Shown here: positions 1-15,838 of the stretch, piece by piece
How the letters are laid out: the number at the start of each line of letters is the position of its first letter
Numbering within the stretch: the first letter of the stretch is position 1
Assembly: GCA_013694695.1 (NCBI GenBank)
Contig: JACDBX010000045.1
Span: 1 to 57,467, forward strand
From: Gemmatimonadales bacterium
GTDB taxonomy: Bacteria > Gemmatimonadota > Gemmatimonadetes > Gemmatimonadales > GWC2-71-9
Direction of reading: 5' to 3'
Length of the DNA stretch: 57,467 nucleotides
Notes under the pieces: model-generated
Databases searched by the model: none
What the model was told of the DNA's origin: nothing
Seen by the model: the letters and a program-made list of their open reading frames with translations, nothing else
Translations under genes and position numbers: made by a program

Positions 1-24
1 GCTCCAGCCAGCTCGGCACACACT

Positions 25-2232
25 TCACGACACCGTCACCCGCACGATCACATTCCTCCCCGCATCGTCCGCGTACCGCTTGTACCGACTGAGGAATGAT
101 CGATACGACGTGTCGAGGATGTTCCGCGCCTGCAGGTCGAGCAGCACGCGCCGACCGGCGACATCGAACGCTCCACCAGTGCTGACGTTCACGAGGGTGT
201 ATCCCGCGGGTGCGAAATCGTCGGGGTCGAGCCGGCGCTGTCGTGCGTTCGTCTCGCCACCGACCTGAACGTAAATGTCGTGCACGGTGGGGACCCTTGG
301 CTCGAGCCGAACATTGTACGTGAACCGCACCGGTGCCACGAAGGCCAGCGGCAGGTCGGTCGTCGTGTTCTGGCCGCGGGTGTAATCCACGCCACCGCGC
401 AGGTGGAGCCATGTTCGGAGGTGCACATCGGCCGACGCCTCCATCCCGGTCAGGACTGCATCGCCCTGTTCATACCGATACACCTGAAACCCCGATTCCG
501 GATCCGTCTCGCCAGTGGGATCGGGGTAGATGTAGTTGGTGATGGCGTTGCGGAACACCCCGATCTCTCCCTGCACGCCGTGTCCCTGCATCCGAACCGC
601 AACGTCGACGTTCAGCGATGCCTCGGTGCGCAGGGCGGAGTTGCCGACCTCGTAGCGCACGGTTCCCTCGTGAACACCGTTGGCGAAGAGCTCGAACGCT
701 GAGGGGGCCCGGAAGCCGCGACCGATGTTCGACACGAGTGCCACCGATTCCGTCACGCGCAGCAGGGCGCCAGCGTTGCCGGTAACGGCGCTCCAATCCT
801 GTTCGCCTCCGTCGAGTCCGAGCGCTTCGTTGGCCTCGTGCCGAAGGCGCCGCCAGTCGGCGCGCGCCCCGACCGAGAACTGCCACCGCCCGGCGTCGAT
901 CTGCTCGAAGGCATAAGCGCCGACATTGTCGGTCACGGAAGCCGGCACCAGCACCTCCTCGCCCGAGATCGAAACGGTGCTGCGCATGGCACTGATCCCG
1001 AGCACGCCGGCGAAGCGTCCTCCGGTCGCGTGATGGAGATGGATGTTTCCCATCGTGTTGATCGACTGCAGGCCGAGGGCGAAATCGGTGGTGCTCGCAT
1101 CCTCGAATTCGCGTCGATGATTGCTCTCGCGACCGAGATCGACCTCGATGCGGGCGGAGCCGAGGGCGATGTTGCCGGTGAGCGTCCCGCGCGACACCCC
1201 AACCCGCTGAAACGGGGTGGCACCAGGCTCCTCAGCGGGATCCTCGTGGATCTCCAGGCGCTCGCTGCGTCCGGTGAAGCTGGCTCCGAGTGTGCCCCAG
1301 CCGCCTCGTACAGCGAGCGCGGCCGAGCCGCCGTGCATGTCGAGCCCGGAGTTGGCGAGCGTCCCCGATGGGGTGCGCAGGTCGCCCTGGGTGCGCGCCG
1401 TGAGCGTGGTCCGGAAGCCGACTGGTCCGCGAGCGCCCTCGACCAGCAACGACCCGTCGGGCGCGTCGCCGTTGGTGCTGAACGATCCCGTGAGCCATTG
1501 GGAGACGAATGCCGGCCGGCCGGTCGCATCGGGCAGCTCGCGCTGCACCACGTTGATCACGCCGCCGAGTGCGTCCGACCCGTACAGCACGCTGGCTGGC
1601 CCGCGGATCACCTCGATTCGCTCGGCGGTTGCCGTCTCCACGTTCGGGGCATGTTCGTCGCCCCACTGCTGGCTCTCGATCCGCTGGCCGTTCTCCAGCA
1701 CGAGCACGCGGTTGGATGTCAGCCCGCGAATCACCGGTTTGCCCACGCCGGAGCCGGTCGAGAAGTTGCGCATTCCGGGCAGTGCCTCGAGTACCGCGCC
1801 GAGCGATGGCGCCTGTGCATTGGCGAGCCCGTCACCCTGCAGCACAGCCAGGGGCTGCGGCGACTCCAGGGCGGTGGTCGCAAGGGGCGTGGCGGTGGTC
1901 TGGATTGCGGCGAGCTCGATGATGGTGCGCGTGAGCGCCACGTCCAGTCGGGTGTCCTGCCCGCGAATCGTGACGCGCATCACCCGTGGACGGAACCCGA
2001 TCGCGGCGACGGACACGCCGTAGGTACCATCGGCAACATCGGTGAGCAGGAACCGGCCGTCCGCATCGGTACGGGTCGAGCGCGACGCCTCGAGGATCAC
2101 GATCCTGGCATCGGCGACCGGCCGTCCTGTGGTGTCGGTGACGCGGCCGACAAGTGAGTAGGCCCCGGGCTCATTGTGCGGCACCGGAAGTGGAAACATT
2201 GCGGTGGCAACCGCAAGCAGGATTGCAAGCAT
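25..2232 (-). CDS. TonB-dependent receptor with N-terminal carboxypeptidase-regulatory-like domain (probably metal uptake)
   Basis: Signal peptide, plug motif RIEVIRGPASVLYGSDALGGVINV, KPVIRGL, QQWGDEH, barrel motifs GFRAPS..ELF and NILD. Start moved to ATG 2232, which has a GGAG SD 5 nt upstream. Confidence 0.92.
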   Translation of the reverse strand: MLAILLAVATAMFPLPVPHNEPGAYSLVGRVTDTTGRPVADARIVILEASRSTRTDADGRFLLTDVADGTYGVSVAAIGFRPRVMRVTIRGQDTRLDVALTRTIIELAAIQTTATPLATTALESPQPLAVLQGDGLANAQAPSLGAVLEALPGMRNFSTGSGVGKPVIRGLTSNRVLVLENGQRIESQQWGDEHAPNVETATAERIEVIRGPASVLYGSDALGGVINVVQRELPDATGRPAFVSQWLTGSFSTNGDAPDGSLLVEGARGPVGFRTTLTARTQGDLRTPSGTLANSGLDMHGGSAALAVRGGWGTLGASFTGRSERLEIHEDPAEEPGATPFQRVGVSRGTLTGNIALGSARIEVDLGRESNHRREFEDASTTDFALGLQSINTMGNIHLHHATGGRFAGVLGISAMRSTVSISGEEVLVPASVTDNVGAYAFEQIDAGRWQFSVGARADWRRLRHEANEALGLDGGEQDWSAVTGNAGALLRVTESVALVSNIGRGFRAPSAFELFANGVHEGTVRYEVGNSALRTEASLNVDVAVRMQGHGVQGEIGVFRNAITNYIYPDPTGETDPESGFQVYRYEQGDAVLTGMEASADVHLRTWLHLRGGVDYTRGQNTTTDLPLAFVAPVRFTYNVRLEPRVPTVHDIYVQVGGETNARQRRLDPDDFAPAGYTLVNVSTGGAFDVAGRRVLLDLQARNILDTSYRSFLSRYKRYADDAGRNVIVRVTVS

Positions 2233-2313
2233 CGGATCTCCATCCATGATGACAGGGCGCGGCATGGCCGCATGGTCCCGCAGGGCGGGATGAGCAGATC
2301 TTTGAAACGCCTG

Positions 2314-2643
2314 TCAGGCGGGAGGAGCGCGGGATCCTGGCGGAAGCGGAGGGAGGCGATCGAGGTGGGAATCATCGGGCGTGAGGATGGCGACCCGGCG
2401 GGTGGCCATCTCGAACCGTGGGGCATCGACGGAACTGCTGACCGGTGACGCCGAAGCGACTGGAGCTCCGATCACGCACCGTTCGGCGTGACAGGCCGGC
2501 CCATCGGCGGACTCGATATGGTGCACGCCCGCCGACTCGGCGTCCGCGTGGTACCAGATGGCGTCCGCGAGCGGCCCGATGAACGCGGCCCATGCGAATG
2601 ACAGCGCCGACATAAAGGCGATCGTGCGGCGAGCAGTGTTCAC
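2314..2643 (-). CDS. DUF2946/CruR-like leader protein with C-terminal RAPP arrest motif
   Basis: GTG start overlaps the kinase TGA (GTGA); 109 aa. N-terminal hydrophobic segment, WYH..VHH..CHAERC metal-ligand cluster, Pro-rich tail ending GSRAPPA. Lies directly upstream of the TBDR. Confidence 0.75.
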   Translation of the reverse strand: MNTARRTIAFMSALSFAWAAFIGPLADAIWYHADAESAGVHHIESADGPACHAERCVIGAPVASASPVSSSVDAPRFEMATRRVAILTPDDSHLDRLPPLPPGSRAPPA

Positions 2644-4280
2644 GCGACCGCAGCCTCCTGCAACGCCTCGCGCACCGCCGGGGGGCCGTCGCTCGGGATC
2701 AGGAACCAGAACGTGCTCCCCTTCCCGTGGATCGATTCCACACCAATCTGTCCGCCGTGCATCTCCACGAAGCGCTTGCACAGCGCGAGCCCGAGCCCGG
2801 TTCCCTGCACGGCGCGGGACGCGGTCGAGTCGACCTGGCTGAACTCACGGAAGAGTTTGTCCATGTCTTCTTGACGAATCCCGACCCCTGTATCGGACAC
2901 CGACACCCACACCACGTCGCGGGTCGCAAGCTTCGGCACCTCTCCGAGTCGGCCAGTGCTGGCCGTCGTCGGCATGGGCGCGACGGTGCGCACCGCCGAG
3001 ATGGTGATCTGGCCGCCTTCGGGGGTGAACTTCGATGCATTGGACAGGAGGTTGAAGAGGATCTGGCGGATCCTCGTGCCGTCGGCGATCACCTCGAGCT
3101 CGGCATCGGGGAGTTCCATCGCGCAGTCCTGTGTCCTCGCGGTGCGCAACGATGCCGTGTCCGTGATGGCACCGGTGACCGCGTCGCGCAGATCGAAGCG
3201 CGCAAGATTGAGCGTCATGCGACCGGCCTCGATCTTCGAGAGATCGAGCACCGAATTGATGAGGCCAAGCAGGTGGTTGCCGTTGCGCAGGATCGCCTCG
3301 AGAAACTCCTTCTGCTGCTCTTCCAGGGGCCCGAGACCCTCGGTCAGGAGCAGGTCGGAGAATCCGATGATTGCATTGAGCGGGGTACGCAGCTCGTGCG
3401 ACATGTTCGCGAGGAACTCGCTCTTGAGTCGCGTTGCACGCTGCAGTTCCTTGTTCTTGAGGGCGAGCATGCGCTCGTTGCGGCGCAGCTCCTCCAGTAC
3501 CGTAGTCCGGTCGAGGCCGAGCACCACCTGATCGCCGAGCGTCTGCAGGAGCTGGAGATCGTGGCCGGTGAACTGTCGACCGTCGCGCCGGTTGTAGGCA
3601 CAGAGCGCCCCGACCACCAGGCCAGCCGACCGCAACGGCACCATGGCAGCGCTCTGGAGCCGATCGTTCAACTCGTCATGGCGATGGTTGCGAGGGTCGG
3701 TTTCCATGTCATGCACGATCGCGGCCTCGTCGGCGGTGATGACGTGGCCCGCGAGCGACCGATCGATCGGGAGCAGCGACCCGACGGCTGGCATCAACGG
3801 CCCCGCGCCGGCCACAACCTTCACGAACCGACCCTCTTCCACCACCAGCATGATCGCGCCGCCCTCGGCCTCCAGGAGGTCAGCAGCGGCTTGGGCAATC
3901 TGGCGGTTGAGAGCGAGCAGGTCGTTGCCGGCCAGGAGCGCGGCGGAGAGATCGCGGAGGCGTTCGAGCTCACTGTTCCGGCGAGCCGATGCGTCGAGGG
4001 CCCGGGAGAGTGAATCCTTCTGGTGGTCAGCGAGAACTCGCCCCCGGCGCAGCGTGACGAAGGCGAGTGCCGACGAGACCGCGGCGAAGGCGAGTCCGCC
4101 ATCATACCTGCCGAGCGCCAGGAGCCCGACCGACGCCCAGCCGCAGAACAGGGCGAGGAACAGCATCGTGCCAGTGCGTGACAGGGCTGTATATCCGGGA
4201 CTGGGCTCGGGGGTGGCGGCCGTGTAAGAGGCCGTCACCATCGAAACGCTCGGTCCGTCCGGAACCCCGCCAGCGCTCAC
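2640..4280 (-). CDS. membrane GAF-domain sensor histidine kinase
   Basis: Two TM segments, GAF domain, H-box FLANMSHELRTPLN, NLLSNASKF, DTGVGI, GTGLGL. Confidence 0.92.
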   Translation of the reverse strand: MSAGGVPDGPSVSMVTASYTAATPEPSPGYTALSRTGTMLFLALFCGWASVGLLALGRYDGGLAFAAVSSALAFVTLRRGRVLADHQKDSLSRALDASARRNSELERLRDLSAALLAGNDLLALNRQIAQAAADLLEAEGGAIMLVVEEGRFVKVVAGAGPLMPAVGSLLPIDRSLAGHVITADEAAIVHDMETDPRNHRHDELNDRLQSAAMVPLRSAGLVVGALCAYNRRDGRQFTGHDLQLLQTLGDQVVLGLDRTTVLEELRRNERMLALKNKELQRATRLKSEFLANMSHELRTPLNAIIGFSDLLLTEGLGPLEEQQKEFLEAILRNGNHLLGLINSVLDLSKIEAGRMTLNLARFDLRDAVTGAITDTASLRTARTQDCAMELPDAELEVIADGTRIRQILFNLLSNASKFTPEGGQITISAVRTVAPMPTTASTGRLGEVPKLATRDVVWVSVSDTGVGIRQEDMDKLFREFSQVDSTASRAVQGTGLGLALCKRFVEMHGGQIGVESIHGKGSTFWFLIPSDGPPAVREALQEAAVA

Positions 4281-4495
4281 GCCGTGCCCTCCGAATCATT
4301 GGTTTCGACCAGCACCTGATGGAACACCGTGGTGCCGATCCGGATCATTTCCCGTAAATACGGCCGGCAGAGGCCGCATTGTGCGCCGCAACCAGTTTCC
4401 CGCATCAGCCGATCAAGGTCCCAACTCCCTGCCCGGACCCTCGGCAAGAGCTGTGCAAAGAGCGTGCGCTGGCATACACAGCGGTCGATATCCAC
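4277..4495 (-). CDS. Bfd-like (2Fe-2S)-binding protein
   Basis: CxC ... GxxCGxC pattern in 72 aa; stop overlaps the kinase start. Confidence 0.75.
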   Translation of the reverse strand: MDIDRCVCQRTLFAQLLPRVRAGSWDLDRLMRETGCGAQCGLCRPYLREMIRIGTTVFHQVLVETNDSEGTA

Positions 4496-4507
4496 GCCCT
4501 GGCCCTG

Positions 4508-5224
4508 TCAGGGGGCCGCGGGACGGATATCGAGCTCACTCACCAGCGCCCTGTCCGGGAGGGATAAGGCATCGATGATGACAGCGGCAACATCTTCCGA
4601 TCGCAGCATGCGCTCAGGCGGCATCTCGCCCAGCAGGTGCTGATCGCGGCGGAGATCGGTGTCGACCGAACCGGGGCAGACCGTCAGCACCCGGACACCG
4701 TCGTGGCGTACCTCGGCCAGGAGCGACGACGAAAACCCGAGGACGGCATGCTTCGAAGCGGCGTAGGCCGTCCCGCCCTTGAAGCCGTTCCTGCCCGCCA
4801 GCGACGAGACGTTGATCACGAATCCCCGCTGGCGTTGGCGCATCCCACTCAGCACTGCCTGGGTCACCACGAAGAGCGACCTGACGTTGCTCGCGAAGGT
4901 GGTGTCCCAGTCCTCGAGCGTGAGTTCGCTGAAGGGCTTCAGGATGCCGACGCCGGCGTTGTTGACCAGCACGTCGGCCGGGCCCAGTCGCGACTCGACG
5001 TGATCGACGAGGGCGCGGACGCCGTCAGGATCGCTGACGTCGCAAGGCTGGCCAGCGGCGTCGATCCCCTCGGCACGCAGCTCCGCAATTACATCGGCGA
5101 GCGGGCCGGGCCGCCGCGCGCACACGCCCACGGAATACCCGGCCCGACCGAGTGCAAGGGCTGTGGCCCGACCGATCCCGGCGGACGCCCCGGTGACGAG
5201 CGCGACGCGTTGCGGTGTGGTCAT
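4508..5224 (-). CDS. SDR family oxidoreductase
   Basis: TGASAGIG, NNAG, YAASK. Confidence 0.93.
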   Translation of the reverse strand: MTTPQRVALVTGASAGIGRATALALGRAGYSVGVCARRPGPLADVIAELRAEGIDAAGQPCDVSDPDGVRALVDHVESRLGPADVLVNNAGVGILKPFSELTLEDWDTTFASNVRSLFVVTQAVLSGMRQRQRGFVINVSSLAGRNGFKGGTAYAASKHAVLGFSSSLLAEVRHDGVRVLTVCPGSVDTDLRRDQHLLGEMPPERMLRSEDVAAVIIDALSLPDRALVSELDIRPAAP

Positions 5225-5976
5225 ACCTTGTGGTGCACCACGCGCCCGGCCTGTTCGCCGTCATCGGCGGGGTACAGCTCGAAATCATGGAAGAACGCCG
5301 GCGCCTCGGCCCGCAACGTCTCCAGTATCCTGACGGCGCACCGCCGGATCTCGCGTTCGGCGCCTTCGCCGAGGCGCAGTTCAAGCATGGTACGCCATGC
5401 GCGGGTGTTTCCGCTCACGACGATCTTCGTTTCGGTTGCATTGGGGAGCAGCGACCGCGCGGCCTCGCGAGCCATCTTCCGCCGGTGCACCTTGCTCTCG
5501 ACCCACGCGTAGCGCTCCATCAATCTTTCGACGGCGGTGACGTAACTGTCCTGGGCAGCGGCGACCTGGGTGCCCCACGCATCCTCCAGCTCCGCGTCGC
5601 CCTGCATCGCGGGCGGCATCACGAATGCCGCCTCCGACTCGTCGACGTAGCGCTGCGAGAGCTGCGAATAACCGAACCCGGCGCGGTGTCGGACCAGCTC
5701 GTGTGTCAGCGAGCGCGAGACCCCCTCGATGAGCACCACGTACACCGCGTGCTCGAACACCGATCCGTGTCCCTGCTTCAGGATGTTGCCGAGATACTCG
5801 GCCGTACTCCGTCCGGCCGGGTTGTGCTGGCTCATGTAGCAGAGCCGGCCGGCGAACTCGGCCAGGCGCTCGCCGTCGGTGCCGGGCTCGTGCCATTGCA
5901 CGGCGAGATGCGCCGGCTCGACAAACTGCGGGCGGGCGATCAGGGTGACAACGGGTTCGCGGTAAATCTTGATCAT
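5221..5976 (-). CDS. thyX: FAD-dependent thymidylate synthase
   Basis: GHGSVFEH, ThyX signature HELVRHR..YSQLSQRY, REAARSLLP; start moved to ATG 5976. Confidence 0.95.
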   Translation of the reverse strand: MIKIYREPVVTLIARPQFVEPAHLAVQWHEPGTDGERLAEFAGRLCYMSQHNPAGRSTAEYLGNILKQGHGSVFEHAVYVVLIEGVSRSLTHELVRHRAGFGYSQLSQRYVDESEAAFVMPPAMQGDAELEDAWGTQVAAAQDSYVTAVERLMERYAWVESKVHRRKMAREAARSLLPNATETKIVVSGNTRAWRTMLELRLGEGAEREIRRCAVRILETLRAEAPAFFHDFELYPADDGEQAGRVVHHKV

Positions 5977-6022
5977 GGATGCGGGCGGGTTGGAGTCGGG
6001 GGAAGGTAACGGGTTGGAGCAC

Positions 6023-7615
6023 TCACCAGCGGCATCGCCCCCAGTCAGCGGTGCGTTCCAGGTCGGCGAGCCATTCGTCGGCATCCGCAGGGATTGCCGG
6101 GGCATTCGGGCCAAGCTTGAGGCTGGCGAGCGGATCGGCCCGACCAATGATGACGCCCGGATTGAAGAGGCCGATCGGGTCGAAGGCATCCTTGACGGCT
6201 GCGTGACATTGCATCACCGCCTCCCCGTACAACGCGCCCAGCAGCGGCGCGCGGAGGCGGCCCGCACCGTGTTCCCCCGACGGCGTTCCGCCGAGCGCGA
6301 TCACGTCGCCAGACACGCGGCGGTAGACTGCCGCGATGCGATCAGGCCATGACGGGTCGCCGGTACGTGGCAGAAGATTCACGTGCACGTGACCGTCGCC
6401 GGCATGCCCGAAGATGACCACATCCACCCCGGCACTTCGGCAGGCCGCGTCGACCGCCTCGATATAGGCCTGCAGCGCTCCAGGCGGCACGCATCCGTCC
6501 TCGACCACCTGCAGTGACCGGCGGCCGTCTTCCAGCGCCGCGAGCGCGGGTGACGCACCGTGGCGCACCGCCCAGAGCCGCTCGATCTCGTCGGGCCGGA
6601 GGGCAAGGTCAATCCGGGCATGCGGCGCGGTGGCTGCAGCCGCGGCGGCCATCCGGGCACTGACCTCGCTGGCGTCATCCCCGGTGAAGTCGGCGAGCAG
6701 GATACTGCCGGCGCCGAGCAGCGCCGCATCGGTATCGACGGACTGCTGGGTGCGCCGGATCACCCCGAGAAACGATTCGTCAAGGAACTCGAGCGTCTCG
6801 GGGTCATACGGACGAATGGCCTCGATCGCGGGCTCCAGGTGGTCCCGCCGATCCAGCACGGCACGGAGCGACATCCGCACGGCGGGCTGGGCATCGAGTC
6901 GCACGGTGAGCCGGGTGATCACGCCGAGTGTACCCTCGGACCCGATCACGACATCGATCAATTCGCGATGAGCGAGCCAGTGGTCGAGTGCGTAACCGGC
7001 GCTGTTCTTCCGCACTGCTGGATACCGTCGCCGGATCTCGTCGCGGTGCTGCTCCAGCACCGGCACGACCTGTTGCGCCCAGCGACCAACTACCGGATGG
7101 GTGCCCGGCGGTGACTCGCCCCGCGCGAGATGCAGCGGTCCGTCAACGGTCTCCAGGGTCAGCGCTTCGATCCACGGCCTGATGCTTCCATGTCGGAGGC
7201 TCGCCGCGCCCGCCGCATTGGTCGACACCATCCCGCCAAGGGTCGCCCATGCTGCACTCGATGGCTCGGGCGGGAGTCGCAGCCCGTGCGGCGCGGCGGC
7301 GGCGCGGAGTTCCGCGAGTGTCAGTGACGGGGAAACGATGGCCCGCCGCGCGATCGCGTCAACGTCACACCCACCGCTGTCGAAAGAGGAGAGGTCGAGC
7401 ACCAGGCCGGGGCCGATGTTCCCGCCATCCATCGCGGTGCCAGCGCCGCGCGGCGTGATCGACAGTGATGCGTTCCGCGCGTCACCGATGGTTGCGCGCA
7501 GCATGCCAATGTCGCGGGGCCGCGCCACCGCGGCGGGGATGATCCGCATGATGCCGGCGCCCTGGCTATATCGGGCGCGCCGGGCCATGTCACGGTCGAG
7601 GAGTTCGGGCGTCAC
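6023..7615 (-). CDS. FAD-binding oxidoreductase (GlcD/D-lactate dehydrogenase-like)
   Basis: PRGAGT, TLGGMVSTNAAG, GSEGTLGVIT, GHAGDGHVH, SGEHG, DP.GLFNPG; GTG 7615 overlaps the upstream TGA. Confidence 0.88.
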   Translation of the reverse strand: MTPELLDRDMARRARYSQGAGIMRIIPAAVARPRDIGMLRATIGDARNASLSITPRGAGTAMDGGNIGPGLVLDLSSFDSGGCDVDAIARRAIVSPSLTLAELRAAAAPHGLRLPPEPSSAAWATLGGMVSTNAAGAASLRHGSIRPWIEALTLETVDGPLHLARGESPPGTHPVVGRWAQQVVPVLEQHRDEIRRRYPAVRKNSAGYALDHWLAHRELIDVVIGSEGTLGVITRLTVRLDAQPAVRMSLRAVLDRRDHLEPAIEAIRPYDPETLEFLDESFLGVIRRTQQSVDTDAALLGAGSILLADFTGDDASEVSARMAAAAAATAPHARIDLALRPDEIERLWAVRHGASPALAALEDGRRSLQVVEDGCVPPGALQAYIEAVDAACRSAGVDVVIFGHAGDGHVHVNLLPRTGDPSWPDRIAAVYRRVSGDVIALGGTPSGEHGAGRLRAPLLGALYGEAVMQCHAAVKDAFDPIGLFNPGVIIGRADPLASLKLGPNAPAIPADADEWLADLERTADWGRCRW

Positions 7616-8625
7616 GCCCGCCGCCAGGCGCGTTGCAGGCGACCGGCAACCGCGGCGATCGCGGTGCTTGAGGGAAGCAGCAGCGCCGCGGTGCCGAGAA
7701 GGAGGTACACCTCGCGGCGGGGCATTTTCACGGTGGTGCTTGCCACACCTTGCGCCGCGTTGCGCCGGACCAGCGCCAGCGTGCGGAGGGCGAACAGCAG
7801 CTGCACCACGCAGAAGAGCCGGATCCGGAAAGCACGGCGTGGCACGGCAAGCGAATAAGCGAGCGCGTCCCGCAGCATTCGCTCGGCAAGCTCGATCAGC
7901 GGTTGGACCACCTGCCACGATTCTGCCGTGTGGCCCGGCGCGAGGAACTCCAGCGGCGTGATGCCAGCTGCCGCCCAGTGTGACGCCGGGAAATACACCC
8001 GTCCCTCAGCGAGGTCGTTGCCGACGTCACGAATCACGTTGGTGAGCTGCAACCCGACCCCGAAATTGACAGCGTGGCGGTGCATGATCGCCAAGCGGGC
8101 ACCGCGAACACCGTGGGCGTGGTTCTGGTACAGGTCGGTGAGCATCAGGCCGACGGTCCCCGCCACGTAGTAGCAGTACTGCTCAAGCTCGGCCTGCGTG
8201 GCGAAGAGCGGGGTGGTGCTGTCGGGGCGCGGGGCCAGGGACACCGACATGCCGTCGATCATCTCGACCGCGTACCGCGCGATGGCATGCACATCCGCTG
8301 CACCGAGGCGGTGGAGTTCGCGATGCACGGAATCCGCAATCCGCATCAGCGCGTGCTCATCGGCAGTGTGCCCGATGCCGTCAACGGGAAGCGCACTCGG
8401 CTCACCCGTCTGGACGGCCGTTCGCCAGGTGGCAAGCAGTTCGCGACGCCGGGGAATGGGGAGGGCGGAATCATCTTCGATCGTATCCGCGACCCGGCAG
8501 ACCAGGTATGCGATCGCAACCGCGCGGGAGAGCGGCGCGGGCAGCATTCGAATGGTTAGCGCAAAGGACCGGGACACCCGGGGGAGGATGGCCTCGCACT
8601 GGCGCCAGTCGTCGAAAGGATTCAG
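7612..8625 (-). CDS. squalene synthase-type head-to-head prenyltransferase (squalene/phytoene synthase family)
   Basis: VSRSFAL, YLVCRVADTIEDD, YCYYVAGTVG, GLQLTNVIRD, GRVYFP, RLFC. Start proposed at CTG 8625; first canonical start is GTG 8577. Confidence 0.85.
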   Translation of the reverse strand: MNPFDDWRQCEAILPRVSRSFALTIRMLPAPLSRAVAIAYLVCRVADTIEDDSALPIPRRRELLATWRTAVQTGEPSALPVDGIGHTADEHALMRIADSVHRELHRLGAADVHAIARYAVEMIDGMSVSLAPRPDSTTPLFATQAELEQYCYYVAGTVGLMLTDLYQNHAHGVRGARLAIMHRHAVNFGVGLQLTNVIRDVGNDLAEGRVYFPASHWAAAGITPLEFLAPGHTAESWQVVQPLIELAERMLRDALAYSLAVPRRAFRIRLFCVVQLLFALRTLALVRRNAAQGVASTTVKMPRREVYLLLGTAALLLPSSTAIAAVAGRLQRAWRRA

Positions 8626-9152
8626 GGCTTTGCCGGTGTGGTGTCGGTCGCCACGCTCGGTGGGATGGCGACCGAGTCCGCAGCCTCCAGCGGCTCGCCA
8701 TGGGCCAGCGTGAGACGGTTGACGATGCCCGCCACCCGGATCGAGATCGGGTGCTGGATCGGCACCTGTCGCTCAAGCGACCGGCCATCGCGTGATGGAT
8801 CTGCCACCGGGCGGTACACCGTCTCGATGGTAACGAGGGAATGGTTGGCCTTCGATGGCTCGATGAAAGCGCGAACCTTCACTACGTCGAGGCCCAGCGG
8901 CCGACGCCGGGTGGGGCGCAGCGTGGCGGCGTCGAACCATTCGGACTCCAGCCAGCCGTCTTTCGCCTCGGTGCGTCGGACGGGTATTGAGTCGGCATCG
9001 AGCGCCAGTGCGACTTCCCGGGTTGCCTCGGGGAGGAACAACTCGAGCTCCATCACCGCCGAGCCGGGCTGGGGCACGAAATGCGGGCGCGTGGTGGTGG
9101 GGTAGCATGCGAGTGCCGAGATGACGCCAAGCGTTGTCAGGGTGCGGTTCAC
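8622..9152 (-). CDS. hypothetical lipoprotein
   Basis: Lipobox-like ALAC after a hydrophobic N-terminus; 4-nt overlap with the upstream gene. Confidence 0.75.
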   Translation of the reverse strand: MNRTLTTLGVISALACYPTTTRPHFVPQPGSAVMELELFLPEATREVALALDADSIPVRRTEAKDGWLESEWFDAATLRPTRRRPLGLDVVKVRAFIEPSKANHSLVTIETVYRPVADPSRDGRSLERQVPIQHPISIRVAGIVNRLTLAHGEPLEAADSVAIPPSVATDTTPAKP

Positions 9153-10033
9153 AGGCCCAGCTCCATTGGCACCGGCTCATCGCCGCGCCAGTCATAGAAT
9201 CCCTGCCCGCTCTTGCGACCCGTATAGCCGGCGCTCACCATCCGCCGCAGCAGCGGTGGCGGAGCGTAGCGCGTCTCGCGGTACTGGTCGAACATGATGT
9301 CCGCGATCCGGACGACGGTATCAAGCCCGACGAAATCGAGGAGCGTGAGCGGTCCCATCGGATGGCCCGCACCCAGGTGCATCGCGGCATCGAGATCGGC
9401 GATCGTCGCGACCCCCCGCTCGAGTGCGCGCACGGCATCGAGAAGATACGGCACGAGCAGCAGGTTGACGATGAATCCCGACTCGTCGCGGGCGACCACC
9501 GCAGTCTTCCCCACCGCGCCGACGAACGTGGTGGCGACCTCCAGCGCACGGGCGCTGGTGCGAACGGAGCGCACCACCTCGACCAGCGCCATCATCGGGA
9601 CGGGATTGAAGAAGTGCAGCCCGAGCATGCGTTCGGGGTGCTGCAAGCCCGCTGCCTGCTCGACCACCGACAGCGACGACGTGTTGGTGGCGAAGACGCA
9701 ATCATCGCGACAGATCGACTCGAGCGCACGCCAGAGAGCCTGCTTGGGGGCGAGGTCCTCGACGATAGCCTCGATCACGAGATCACAATCGTGCAGCGCA
9801 TCCAGGGATGTCGCCAGCATCAGGCGCTCCAGCGCGGCATCGCGCGCTTCAGGGGCCAACGTGCCCTTGGCCACGAACCGGTCGAGTGAACGCGTGATGC
9901 CAGCCACGGCGCGCGGACGCTGCGCAGCGTCATGCTCGAAGAGCCGCACGCTCATCCCCGCGGTCGCCGCAACCTGCGCGATGCCCGATCCCATCAGGCC
10001 GCCACCGGCAACTCCCACCACCTGGGTGGTCAT
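9149..10033 (-). CDS. 3-hydroxyacyl(butyryl)-CoA dehydrogenase
   Basis: GGGLMGSGIA, EAIVE, NTSSL, GLHFFNP, HPMGPLTLLDFVGLD, GRKSGQGFY. Confidence 0.94.
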   Translation of the reverse strand: MTTQVVGVAGGGLMGSGIAQVAATAGMSVRLFEHDAAQRPRAVAGITRSLDRFVAKGTLAPEARDAALERLMLATSLDALHDCDLVIEAIVEDLAPKQALWRALESICRDDCVFATNTSSLSVVEQAAGLQHPERMLGLHFFNPVPMMALVEVVRSVRTSARALEVATTFVGAVGKTAVVARDESGFIVNLLLVPYLLDAVRALERGVATIADLDAAMHLGAGHPMGPLTLLDFVGLDTVVRIADIMFDQYRETRYAPPPLLRRMVSAGYTGRKSGQGFYDWRGDEPVPMELGL

Positions 10034-14734: not shown

Positions 14735-14759
14735 TGACGCGCTATAATATGTCGCGTCA
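14735..14759. promoter_or_regulatory. inverted repeat enclosing overlapping divergent -10 boxes
   Basis: TGACGCG-N11-CGCGTCA with TATAAT (+, 14743-14748) and TATTAT (-) inside. Confidence 0.5.
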
Positions 14760-14794
14760 CGCTCCTCCTTCTGCAAGGTGTGGTCACACCCACG

Positions 14795-15838
14795 ATGCGC
14801 GCACTCTGCCTCACCGCGACCCGCGGAACCGACCACCTCGCCCTGTGCGACATGCCCGTTCCCGCCCTCACAGACCCTGGCGAGGTTCGGGTGGCGATCA
14901 AGACGGTTGCCCTCAACCACCTCGACCTGTGGGTGGCCGAAGGGCTCCCGGCAGTGCCCATCAAAAGTTTCCCGCACGTTGTCGGTGCAGACGGAGCCGG
15001 GGTGGTGACGGAATGTGGCGCAGCCGTGACCCACGTCTCCGTGGGTGATCGCGTGGTGATCAATCCCGGGATCTCGTGCGGCCACTGCGAGGCATGCATC
15101 GCCCTCGACGAGCCGTTTTGCCGAGAGTTCGCACTTCTCGGCGAGCACCGCCATGGCACGGCCGCCGAGCAGGTGGTGCTGCCGGGTCGCAACGTGCTCC
15201 GGATCGAGGGAGAGTGGAGCTGGGCCGAGGCAGCGGCGTTCTCGCTGGTCACCCTCACCGCCTGGCGAATGCTCGCGCATCGTGCCCGTATCAAGGCGGG
15301 AGAGGTGGTTCTCATCTGGGGCGCGGGCGGTGGCGTGGCCCTGCAGGCGCTGCAGATTGCCCGTCACCTTGGCGCCCGCGTCGCGGTGACCTCGTCGTCC
15401 GATGCCAAGCTCGCGCAGACCACTGCGCTCGGCGCCGAATTGCTGATCAACCATCGCGAAGAACCCGACGTCCCCGCCGCCGTGAGGACACATTTCGGGC
15501 GACGGGCGGATGTGGTGGTCGACACCGTGGGGGCGCCGACCTGGGCTCGCTCGCTCAAGGCACTGCGACCCGGTGGGAGGTACGTGACGTGCGGGGCCAC
15601 AGGTGGGCACGATGTCGCACTTGACCTGCGCCGACTCTTCTGGTTCCAGTGGTCGATCCTGGGGTCGACCATGGGAAGCTCGGTGGAGTTTGGCGAGATC
15701 GTCTCACTCGGAAACCGGGGACTGCTGCGCCCGGTGATCGATGCTGTCTATCCGCTCGCCGAGGGAGCCGACGCATATCGGCGTTTGGGCGACGCGCAGC
15801 AATTCGGAAAACTCGTTCTCGAGGTGGATCGTGACTGA
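14795..15838 (+). CDS. zinc-binding alcohol dehydrogenase family protein
   Basis: LNHLD, PHVVGADGAG, CGHCEAC..C, GAGGGV. Confidence 0.92.
   Translation: MRALCLTATRGTDHLALCDMPVPALTDPGEVRVAIKTVALNHLDLWVAEGLPAVPIKSFPHVVGADGAGVVTECGAAVTHVSVGDRVVINPGISCGHCEACIALDEPFCREFALLGEHRHGTAAEQVVLPGRNVLRIEGEWSWAEAAAFSLVTLTAWRMLAHRARIKAGEVVLIWGAGGGVALQALQIARHLGARVAVTSSSDAKLAQTTALGAELLINHREEPDVPAAVRTHFGRRADVVVDTVGAPTWARSLKALRPGGRYVTCGATGGHDVALDLRRLFWFQWSILGSTMGSSVEFGEIVSLGNRGLLRPVIDAVYPLAEGADAYRRLGDAQQFGKLVLEVDRD

Follow-up and report, generated by a model that had tools for sequence, protein, structure and literature searches.

This analysis concerns a small open reading frame (ORF) near one end of a 57,467-nucleotide (nt) contig of a Gemmatimonadales bacterium (GenBank assembly GCA_013694695.1, contig JACDBX010000045.1), the whole of which is referred to here as the window. 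The ORF (2314-2643) encodes a peptide of 109 residues that ends one residue after an Arg-Ala-Pro-Pro (RAPP) motif, and it lies directly in front of a gene for a TonB-dependent receptor (25-2232). It probably encodes a cis-acting leader peptide of the kind described for CruR and CutF, through which the receptor would be regulated by metal. The case is built on conservation, a fixed ligand-to-RAPP distance that may act as a ruler, homology, gene context and an RNA pairing whose prediction hinges on which synonymous codons are used; from these we infer the stall, the binding and identity of the metal, the polarity of the response and each step of the mechanism proposed below. [quoted passage not shown] The sequence-only reading of this DNA, which had proposed a divergent DUF2946/CruR-like leader in an apparently non-proteobacterial host, is, by the comparisons made here, essentially right: the host belongs to the Gemmatimonadales, and the candidate switch belongs to a known kind.

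Anatomy of the leader

All features of the locus are found on the minus strand of the window. The leader starts with GTG (2643-2641), runs for 109 codons and stops with TGA (2316-2314), with GC contents of 0.69, 0.61 and 0.75 at the three codon positions. Its translation bears out the hydrophobic N-terminus, the Pro-rich tail and the terminal GSRAPPA that had been noticed earlier. The hydrophobic segment, located by sequence and by the hydropathy maximum, comprises about 17 residues (about 8-24; 2572-2622), is preceded by Arg-Arg, and is presumed to be a Sec signal or signal anchor. It is followed by a D27-A28-x3-H32 motif (2548-2565), by H41-H42, and by C51-H52-A-E-R-C56 (2476-2493), which from its sequence is presumed to be the metal-binding core. 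These residues had been summarised as WYH-x7-HH-x8-CHAERC, in which the eight residues before CHAERC are correct and the gap between WYH and HH is eight residues rather than seven. A Pro/Ala/Ser-rich spacer of 48 residues (2332-2475), C-rich and G-poor in its 3' part, leads to the RAPP codons CGC GCT CCT CCC (2320-2331), the presumed stall site, within which CUCC is read twice (2327-2324 and 2324-2321). The C-terminus thus reads G-S-R105-A-P-P108-A109, with a single residue between RAPP and the TGA. By analogy with ApdA/ApdP and CruR (PMC10951233, PMC12992588), the P site would be occupied by CCT 2325-2323 and the A site by CCC 2322-2320 during the presumed stall.

A conserved family with a fixed-length ruler

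The leader ORF is a real, conserved gene. A word-indexed search returned seven proteins, all 109 residues long, 53-95% identical and each ending in GSRAPP[AV], and the leader protein was matched in 19 of 41 related genomes, the window's own among them. From the genome loci 19 full-length homologues were taken, including one locus from a genome flagged as unpublished (L013, G024), on which no statement rests alone. In the resulting 23-member alignment, whose members are 21-88% identical to the window's protein, M1, D27, H32, H52, C56, R105, A106, P107 and P108 are invariant, and A28 and C51 are kept in at least 90% of the members. A hidden Markov model (HMM) built from this alignment was run against 1.84 billion cluster representatives and matched 390 of them at E<=1e-3 and 104 at E<=1e-10; nearly all of the matches are 105-120 residues long. 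Across 146 of these representatives D27, H52, C56, R105, P107 and P108 are invariant, and H32 and A106 are present in at least 90%. The idea of a spurious ORF in high-GC DNA was rejected because these motifs are conserved across the 390 representatives. The expectation that RAPP and the His/Cys ligands would be kept upstream of orthologous receptors held in the 23-member alignment and in the 19 loci. As to the Cys/His cluster as a set of ligands, this was sustained in the wider family for H52 and C56, which are invariant there, and not for C51 and H42.

Most ESM Atlas neighbours of the leader come from Gemmatimonadota. A profile search for the family was positive for 48 of the 151 genomes sampled from the phylum; in the taxonomic family of the window it hit 33 of 71 genomes, and a single genome has as many as four copies, often 3-6 kb apart. 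An alignment of eight closer members led to four related loci in metagenome-assembled genomes of Gemmatimonadales. In metagenome contigs a protein-pattern scan yielded no relative of the leader, and a DNA pattern made of the CHAERC codons, 144 nt and the RAPP codons yielded ten loci, which are described here and were kept out of the statistics. In several Gemmatimonadota genomes two to four family members stand 3-6 kb apart on one contig (e.g., G137:C108:74686-82692, G173:C186:6055-10165 and G178:C10:71664-74696), an arrangement that looks like tandem leader-plus-receptor cassettes.

Motifs, tails and spacings were counted on the best 150 of the 390 representatives. RAPP is present in 139 of these, and the tails of the other eleven include RSPP, RGPP and RPPP; in 138 of the 139 RAPP-bearing representatives the motif is followed by one to six residues, mostly three or four. 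The distance from C56 to RAPP is 48 residues in 18 of the 19 genome loci and 47 in the remaining one, and among the representatives 46-49 residues separate H-x3-C from R-[ASGP]-P-P in 149 of 150, exactly 48 in 122. The length of this spacer is constant and its sequence poorly conserved. The distance between D-A-x3-H and H-x3-C is variable (18-23 residues). The Cys next to the invariant His also varies: it directly precedes the His in 78 of the 150 representatives and stands three residues before it in 26. The leader of locus L015 (G001:C1) carries Thr in place of the first Cys (T-H-A-A-S-C) and keeps H-x3-C, the 48-residue spacer and RAPP, which fits the wider pattern of a dispensable first Cys.

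These spacings bear on an explanation that involves no switch, namely that the leader is a stable, small exported metal-binding protein, acting as a chaperone or as an accessory of the receptor, and that RAPP is unrelated to stalling. An export-like N-terminus and conserved His, Cys and Asp residues would suit such a protein, and CutF itself was initially taken for a chaperone (PMC9426467). However, a spacer of fixed length and variable sequence fits a ruler and not a fold, the ESM Atlas model of the leader is poor (pLDDT 0.55, pTM 0.26), RAPP keeps its place within six residues of the stop, and the codons of RAPP are constrained at synonymous sites (see below), so that we regard this explanation as improbable.

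Relation to DUF2946 and canonical CxxC-RAPP proteins

The relation of this family to known leaders was addressed by profile-profile comparison with canonical CxxC-RAPP proteins of the phylum. Within the phylum DUF2946 itself (Pfam PF11162, gathering cut-off 23.7 bits) was matched in 21 of 151 genomes at E<=0.01, four of them above the cut-off. The canonical proteins have a hydrophobic N-terminus, often an [IV]-x-D-A motif, H-x3-C-x2-C, a spacer of 43-45 residues, RAPP and two to five further residues. Against a set of eight such proteins, of which three are above the DUF2946 cut-off, hhalign aligned the 23-member family with 95.9% probability (E 5.3e-9) over 108 columns, and the 146-member profile with 96.0% probability (E 4.7e-9). 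In these alignments C56 matches the first of the two Cys of CxxC, and H52 matches a His located four residues earlier; counted from the shared Cys, the leader family and the canonical proteins have the same 48-residue distance to RAPP. This significant similarity indicates, as far as profiles can tell, that the window's leader is a divergent Gemmatimonadota branch of the DUF2946/CruR-CutF superfamily that no longer has the second Cys of CxxC. The earlier description of a divergent DUF2946/CruR-like leader with Cx4C is therefore upheld by the homology to the CxxC-45-RAPP proteins.

The eight canonical CxxC leaders stand in comparable places, six of them before TonB-type receptors, one before an OEP gene and one before an ABC ATPase gene. 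In the window's genus, locus L033 (G125:C15) has a canonical CxxC (CPAC)-44-RAPP DUF2946-like leader directly before an OEP efflux gene; both types of leader thus coexist in the genus.

The downstream receptor and its metal-gene context

The gene that follows the leader (25-2232) encodes a TonB-dependent receptor of 735 residues with CarboxypepD_reg, Plug and beta-barrel parts, as identified by Pfam, NCBIfam and Protein Data Bank (PDB) searches. A mechanical ORF list places its start at 2265. The start at ATG 2232-2230, 81 nt downstream of the leader as first proposed, is backed by the Shine-Dalgarno sequence GGAG (2238-2241), 5 nt before the ATG, and GGAG or GGAA is found at the same place in all 22 related loci. 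Across these loci the gap between leader and receptor measures 81-143 nt. In 18 of the 19 genome loci the next ORF begins like a CarboxypepD_reg-type receptor, which was confirmed by Pfam in the window and in eight other genomes. Two receptor types follow the leaders, one of about 740-790 residues with Plug and TonB barrel, and one of about 800-825 residues with OMP_b-brl_3.

The exception is locus L024 (G032:C5), where two leaders (14736-15218 and 8993-9343, both on the minus strand) lie 5.7 kb apart in one genome. One of them precedes a TonB-dependent receptor, which is followed by a Peptidase_M6-like gene, and the other, a paralogue, stands before OEP, HlyD_D23 and a pump that scores higher than the CusA/CzcA cut-off. 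As the same type of sensor stands before both an importer-like gene and an exporter, the two copies should have opposite response polarities or different ligands. More leaders before efflux genes are found among the metagenome loci retrieved with the DNA pattern.

Behind the receptor, genomes of the window's genus have a GAF-like gene (opposite strand), a CopZ-like gene, a P1B ATPase that exceeds the copper cut-off of TIGR01511 and a CsoR/RicR-like repressor, with a multicopper oxidase in addition in one genome. The window's contig ends 24 nt past the receptor, and the same copper genes open contig C174 of the same genome. The CopA encoded there is 82% identical to the CopA of a neighbour genome, and its CPC, YN and M-x-x-S-S motifs are readable, which mark Cu(I) pumps. 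Between receptor and copZ the opposite strand carries a gene for a conserved protein of about 335 residues, whose GAF-like match is weak (L045, G000:C174, 3-1004, minus strand; L021, 12391-13404, minus strand); this protein could be a regulator of the copper island. Copper is favoured by this gene context as the likeliest metal for the window's genus, with zinc as a possible second. The sequence-only reading had suggested Zn, Ni or Co: CopZ, CopA and CsoR point to copper and away from Ni and Co, and the zinc part of the suggestion is still possible because the nearest solved relative of the receptor is ZnuD.

The combination of RAPP with an N-terminal export segment also corresponds to the anatomy of ApdA/ApdP (PMC10951233, PMC12992588), which might suggest a SecM/ApdP-style secretion monitor whose stall is released only by the pulling force of Sec, with no metal input. 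This is highly improbable, as the downstream gene encodes a receptor or an efflux protein and not a component of the Sec/YidC pathway of the ApdA/ApdP type, and such a monitor would have no role for the invariant Asp, His, His and Cys residues or for the metal-gene context.

Overlap with an upstream histidine kinase gene

Upstream of the leader lies a gene for a sensor histidine kinase of 546 residues with the Pfam architecture GAF-HisKA-HATPase_c (2640-4280). Its stop TGA (2642-2640) and the leader's GTG (2643-2641) overlap by 4 nt in the form GTGA. Kinase orthologues, 75-100% identical and far more conserved than the leader, are present upstream and on the same strand in 17 of the 22 loci. 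The start codon of the leader, ATG or GTG, overlaps the kinase TGA by 4 nt in 13 of the 22 loci and by 1 nt in one; in three loci the two genes are separated by 69-120 nt, and in five of the 22 no same-strand kinase was found upstream. The conserved position of the start codon implies that the N-terminus of the leader is fixed. The place of the leader behind the kinase, pointed out from the DNA alone, and the 4-nt overlap thus recur among the relatives. An in-frame fusion of kinase and leader was also considered, the leader frame being open far upstream in some loci; it was rejected, as this stretch is the G-box of the kinase read out of frame and the kinase stops at the leader start.

Presumed stall codons and their predicted pairing with the ribosome-binding site

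At the RNA level the codons of the presumed stall site are unusual. In 47 genes of the window GCT accounts for 6.4% of Ala codons and CCT for 5.3% of Pro codons, and CCT and CCA together for 14.5% of Pro codons. Across the 22 loci, which are relatives and whose counts are therefore not independent events, the first Pro codon of RAPP is CCT in eleven, CCA in eight, CCG in two and CCC in one. CUCC occurs between RAPP and the stop in 20 of the 22, compared to an expectation of about 0.09 for a stretch of such length.

For each locus a partition-function fold was computed on a segment that begins 30 nt before RAPP and extends 15 nt into the next gene. The predicted probability that GGAG pairs with the stretch from RAPP to the stop averages 0.74, versus 0.23 when this stretch is shuffled; it reaches at least 0.70 in 16 of the 22 loci, and in 15 of the 22 at most one of 30 shuffles equals the observed pairing. 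Recoding with synonyms ending in G or C lowered the mean pairing to 0.25, and in the window from 0.81 to 0.00. In the consensus fold of the near clade CUCC (2324-2321) is predicted to pair with GGAG (2241-2238), and a second helix is predicted to close the intergenic region, with two hairpins in between. The 5' arm of this helix, CCUGACAGG (2310-2318), includes the stop UGA (2316-2314) and shows little covariation, and its 3' arm, CCUGUCA (2250-2256), lies just 5' of the ribosome-binding site. In two more divergent clades consensus folding gave no usable common structure, because intergenic lengths differ and the register of the pairing moves between Pro and tail codons.

Proposed mechanism

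Most ribosomes would reach the leader through coupling to the kinase gene upstream. The nascent chain would carry the export segment and a metal site formed by D27/H32 and (C51)H52/C56, and the ribosome would pause at R105-A-P107, on CCT 2325-2323, with Pro108-tRNA on CCC 2322-2320 in the A site. At this pause C56 would be 51 residues away from the P-site residue. The 48-residue spacer would then put H52 and C56 just outside the tunnel or, if the chain is exported, at the periplasmic mouth of SecY, with D27 and H32 already outside and free to complete the metal site; Ozturk et al. 2023 reckon with a tunnel of about 30 residues and a membrane passage of about 17 (PMC9973294). Occupancy by metal may alter the force on the chain, and hence the length of the stall. 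The stalled ribosome would cover the codons from RAPP to the stop, which in the free RNA are the predicted partner of the Shine-Dalgarno sequence, and would shield a C-rich tract resembling a Rho-loading site. Since the paused ribosome would sit on both elements, a long stall would favour expression of the receptor, and a short one would leave the ribosome-binding site masked and/or allow Rho-dependent termination. For an importer next to copper-efflux genes the polarity of CruR may be guessed, with metal shortening the stall and shutting the receptor down. A paralogue before an efflux pump would need the polarity of CutF, and the sequences do not tell the two polarities apart.

Points against the proposal and alternative outputs or metals

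A number of observations weigh against this proposal. Regarding its pedigree, Pfam DUF2946 gave no match to the window's leader at E<=1, only four of the 23 family members were matched (best E 0.09), and a genome-wide search of the window's genome (G000) for the DUF2946 family was negative. The leader is not the first gene of an operon as CruR genes are, and C51 is absent in 42 of the 150 representatives, which have no Cys within four residues upstream of the His. Regarding RNA structure, the fold of the window has an unremarkable stability (z -1.22, with 20 of 200 shuffles folding equally well), the consensus folds contain almost no compensatory changes, and six of the 22 loci lack the pairing between Shine-Dalgarno sequence and stall codons. 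Native duplexes of leader and ribosome-binding site beat swapped ones by only 3.4 kcal/mol on average, with poor ranks in L002, L005 and L014, and forcing the footprint of the stalled ribosome to be single-stranded raises the mean unpaired probability of the Shine-Dalgarno sequence only from 0.09 to 0.27, and in the window from 0.05 to 0.08. Regarding output and metal, a leader type that precedes both importer-like receptors and an efflux system cannot fit a single polarity. In the sister genus (g3) the context consists of a ZnuA/AztC-like gene, metalloprotease-like genes and a CusA/CzcA-family pump, whose adaptor is best matched as CzcB/NccB. Finally, the nearest solved relative of the window's receptor in the PDB search is the zinc receptor ZnuD (E 5.2e-28), with OprC at about 1e-6, which leaves the metal ambiguous.

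The RNA results lead to an alternative in which leader and stall are unchanged and the output is Rho-dependent termination in the intergenic region, as for CruR, with the Shine-Dalgarno pairing being secondary. The last 120 nt or so of the leader are C-rich and G-poor, with C/G ratios of 2.7-2.8 in 60-nt windows (about 2403-2314), and the window's genome encodes Rho, so that a CruR-like Rho route could also operate. The scans for intrinsic terminators in 1-5400 found no such site, CruR offers a precedent (PMC9426467), and modelling a stalled ribosome on the window unmasked the Shine-Dalgarno sequence only weakly. A pure Rho model, on the other hand, leaves the strong, synonymous-codon-dependent Shine-Dalgarno pairing unexplained. 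We consider this output possible, if somewhat doubtful, and it may act jointly with the unmasking of the ribosome-binding site proposed above.

The receptor and the sister genus lead to another alternative, which concerns the metal: zinc, or another divalent metal, would be sensed by an Asp/His/His/Cys site that controls a ZnuD-like zinc receptor. Among solved structures ZnuD is by a wide margin the receptor's best relative, and it is also among its best NCBIfam matches, and the neighbours of the g3 leader listed above would suit zinc; for a divalent metal in general, CutF-like clusters with His-only motifs have been linked to Ni/Co genes (PMC9973294). However, the best NCBIfam scores of the receptor, for heme-receptor and ZnuD models, are all far below the respective cut-offs, the neighbours in the window's genus are CopZ-like, a copper-type P1B ATPase and CsoR/RicR-like, with a multicopper oxidase in one genome, and both characterised relatives of the leader respond to copper. 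Zinc sensing is therefore entertained here as a tentative possibility. A more far-reaching reading would make the stall site and the RNA switch a single element, in which the rare codons supply CUCC and the arrested ribosome uncovers the receptor's ribosome-binding site, coupled to the kinase gene and provided with a D/H/H/C sensor that reads zinc to match the ZnuD-like receptor; the whole of this combination is unlikely.

Comparison with known arrest-peptide systems

The proposed copper-responsive leader is best compared to CruR (Bp2923) of Bordetella pertussis, of which the hallmarks are CXXC, RAPP three residues from the end and a spacing of 45 residues, plus or minus 1-2, between them (PMC9426467). 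RAPP is required for the expression of the receptor gene bfrG and CXXC for its repression by copper, five residues added to the spacer impair control, and the output is Rho-dependent termination (PMC9426467). CruR has been reported to arrest in vitro while its first Pro codon occupies the P site (PMC12992588), and the mechanism of arrest with the P site taken by RAP and the A site by Pro-tRNA was described by Morici et al. 2024 (PMC10951233). The window's leader shares with CruR the small size, the N-terminal export segment (presumed here), a Cys-containing metal motif at a fixed spacing from a C-terminal RAPP near the stop, the C-rich 3' part, a long, structured gap between the small ORF and a gene for a TonB-dependent receptor, and copper-homeostasis genes nearby; the register is equal if C56 corresponds to the first Cys of CruR. 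In contrast to the CxxC of CruR the leader has C-H-x3-C (Cx4C) with an invariant H-x3-C core, it falls below the Pfam DUF2946 threshold, and it has one residue after RAPP instead of three. Its RAPP codons are rare, whereas frequent ones have been reported for CruR, and they are predicted to pair with the Shine-Dalgarno sequence of the receptor, which sets the window's leader apart from CruR. CruR genes are reported to be first in their operons (PMC9426467), whereas the leader overlaps a histidine kinase gene by 4 nt. The hosts differ too, CruR being from Bordetella and the leader from the phylum Gemmatimonadota.

CutF of Rhodobacter capsulatus had been named as a second example of CxxC with a RAPP tail. 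This needs correction, as CutF has CxxxC and a PPP motif instead (PMC9973294; 10.1101/2025.02.05.636593) and precedes a multicopper oxidase gene. The leader and CutF both place a Cys motif about 45 residues upstream of a Pro-rich stall motif in a nascent sensor that is exported (export and stall being presumed for the leader), and for both it is proposed that the stall opens an RNA fold masking the Shine-Dalgarno sequence of the next gene. The shielding element is an intergenic stem-loop in CutF, whereas here the predicted anti-Shine-Dalgarno sequence is the stall site itself. Ozturk et al. 2023 reported 5,334 CutF-like proteins in 29 clusters with differing Cys/His motifs, whose commonest neighbours are OEP/RND genes, followed by TonB-like genes (PMC9973294), and both the variety of motifs and the neighbours recur in the family described here.

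Small ORFs ending in RAPP or RGPP before TonB-dependent receptors have been described across Gram-negative phyla (EMBO J 2025, PMC12992588), and with these the leader shares the C-terminal RAPP, the localisation signal (presumed here) and the receptor downstream. In the main text of that article Gemmatimonadota, coupling to a kinase, a ruler and Shine-Dalgarno pairing are not mentioned. Gemmatimonadota are likewise unmentioned in the searched main texts on CruR, CutF and RAPP leaders, the supplementary lists of which may already hold an H-x3-C/Cx4C cluster, and a literature search joining Gemmatimonad-, RAPP and arrest peptide returned no paper combining all three. ApdA/ApdP and SecM have in common with the leader that a stall (presumed here) regulates the next gene in cis, but they monitor Sec/YidC activity, precede sec genes and have no metal ligands.

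Metal-sensing arrest peptides are a recently recognised way of controlling metal transport without a transcription factor. To our knowledge, only CruR and CutF have been studied among them, and these respond to copper in opposite directions. The Gemmatimonadota branch offers natural variation in the features under debate, namely the ligand set, the placement before importers or exporters and a possible link between stall codons and the ribosome-binding site. As Pfam DUF2946 misses a sizeable part of the superfamily, surveys that use it will under-count such switches. The leader also marks receptors and pumps that are probably metal-regulated in these soil and sediment bacteria. If the zinc-sensing reading were true, this would be the first zinc-responsive arrest peptide.

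Neighbouring genes and minor observations

Neither the Pfam nor the NCBIfam search returned a match for the leader. Upstream of the kinase gene, and overlapping its start by 4 nt, a Cys-rich ORF of 72 residues (4277-4495, minus strand) weakly resembles a BFD-like [2Fe-2S] protein (Pfam Fer2_BFD 22.9 bits, below the 26-bit cut-off). An ORF of 72 residues is present at the same place in genome G020 (L021, 7891-8109), for which no Pfam or NCBIfam match was obtained at E<=1e-5. Next come a short-chain dehydrogenase gene (4508-5224) and thyX (5221-6189), both on the minus strand. The four genes thyX, dehydrogenase, 72-residue ORF and kinase are consecutive, and between neighbours there is either a 4-nt overlap or a gap of 12 nt. 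Scans of 1-5400 for sigma-70 promoters, like those for intrinsic terminators, found none. In the mechanical ORF list two minus-strand ORFs, 6023-7918 (631 residues) and 7612-8577, overlap by about 300 nt, and the upstream part of the 631-residue frame is probably non-coding.

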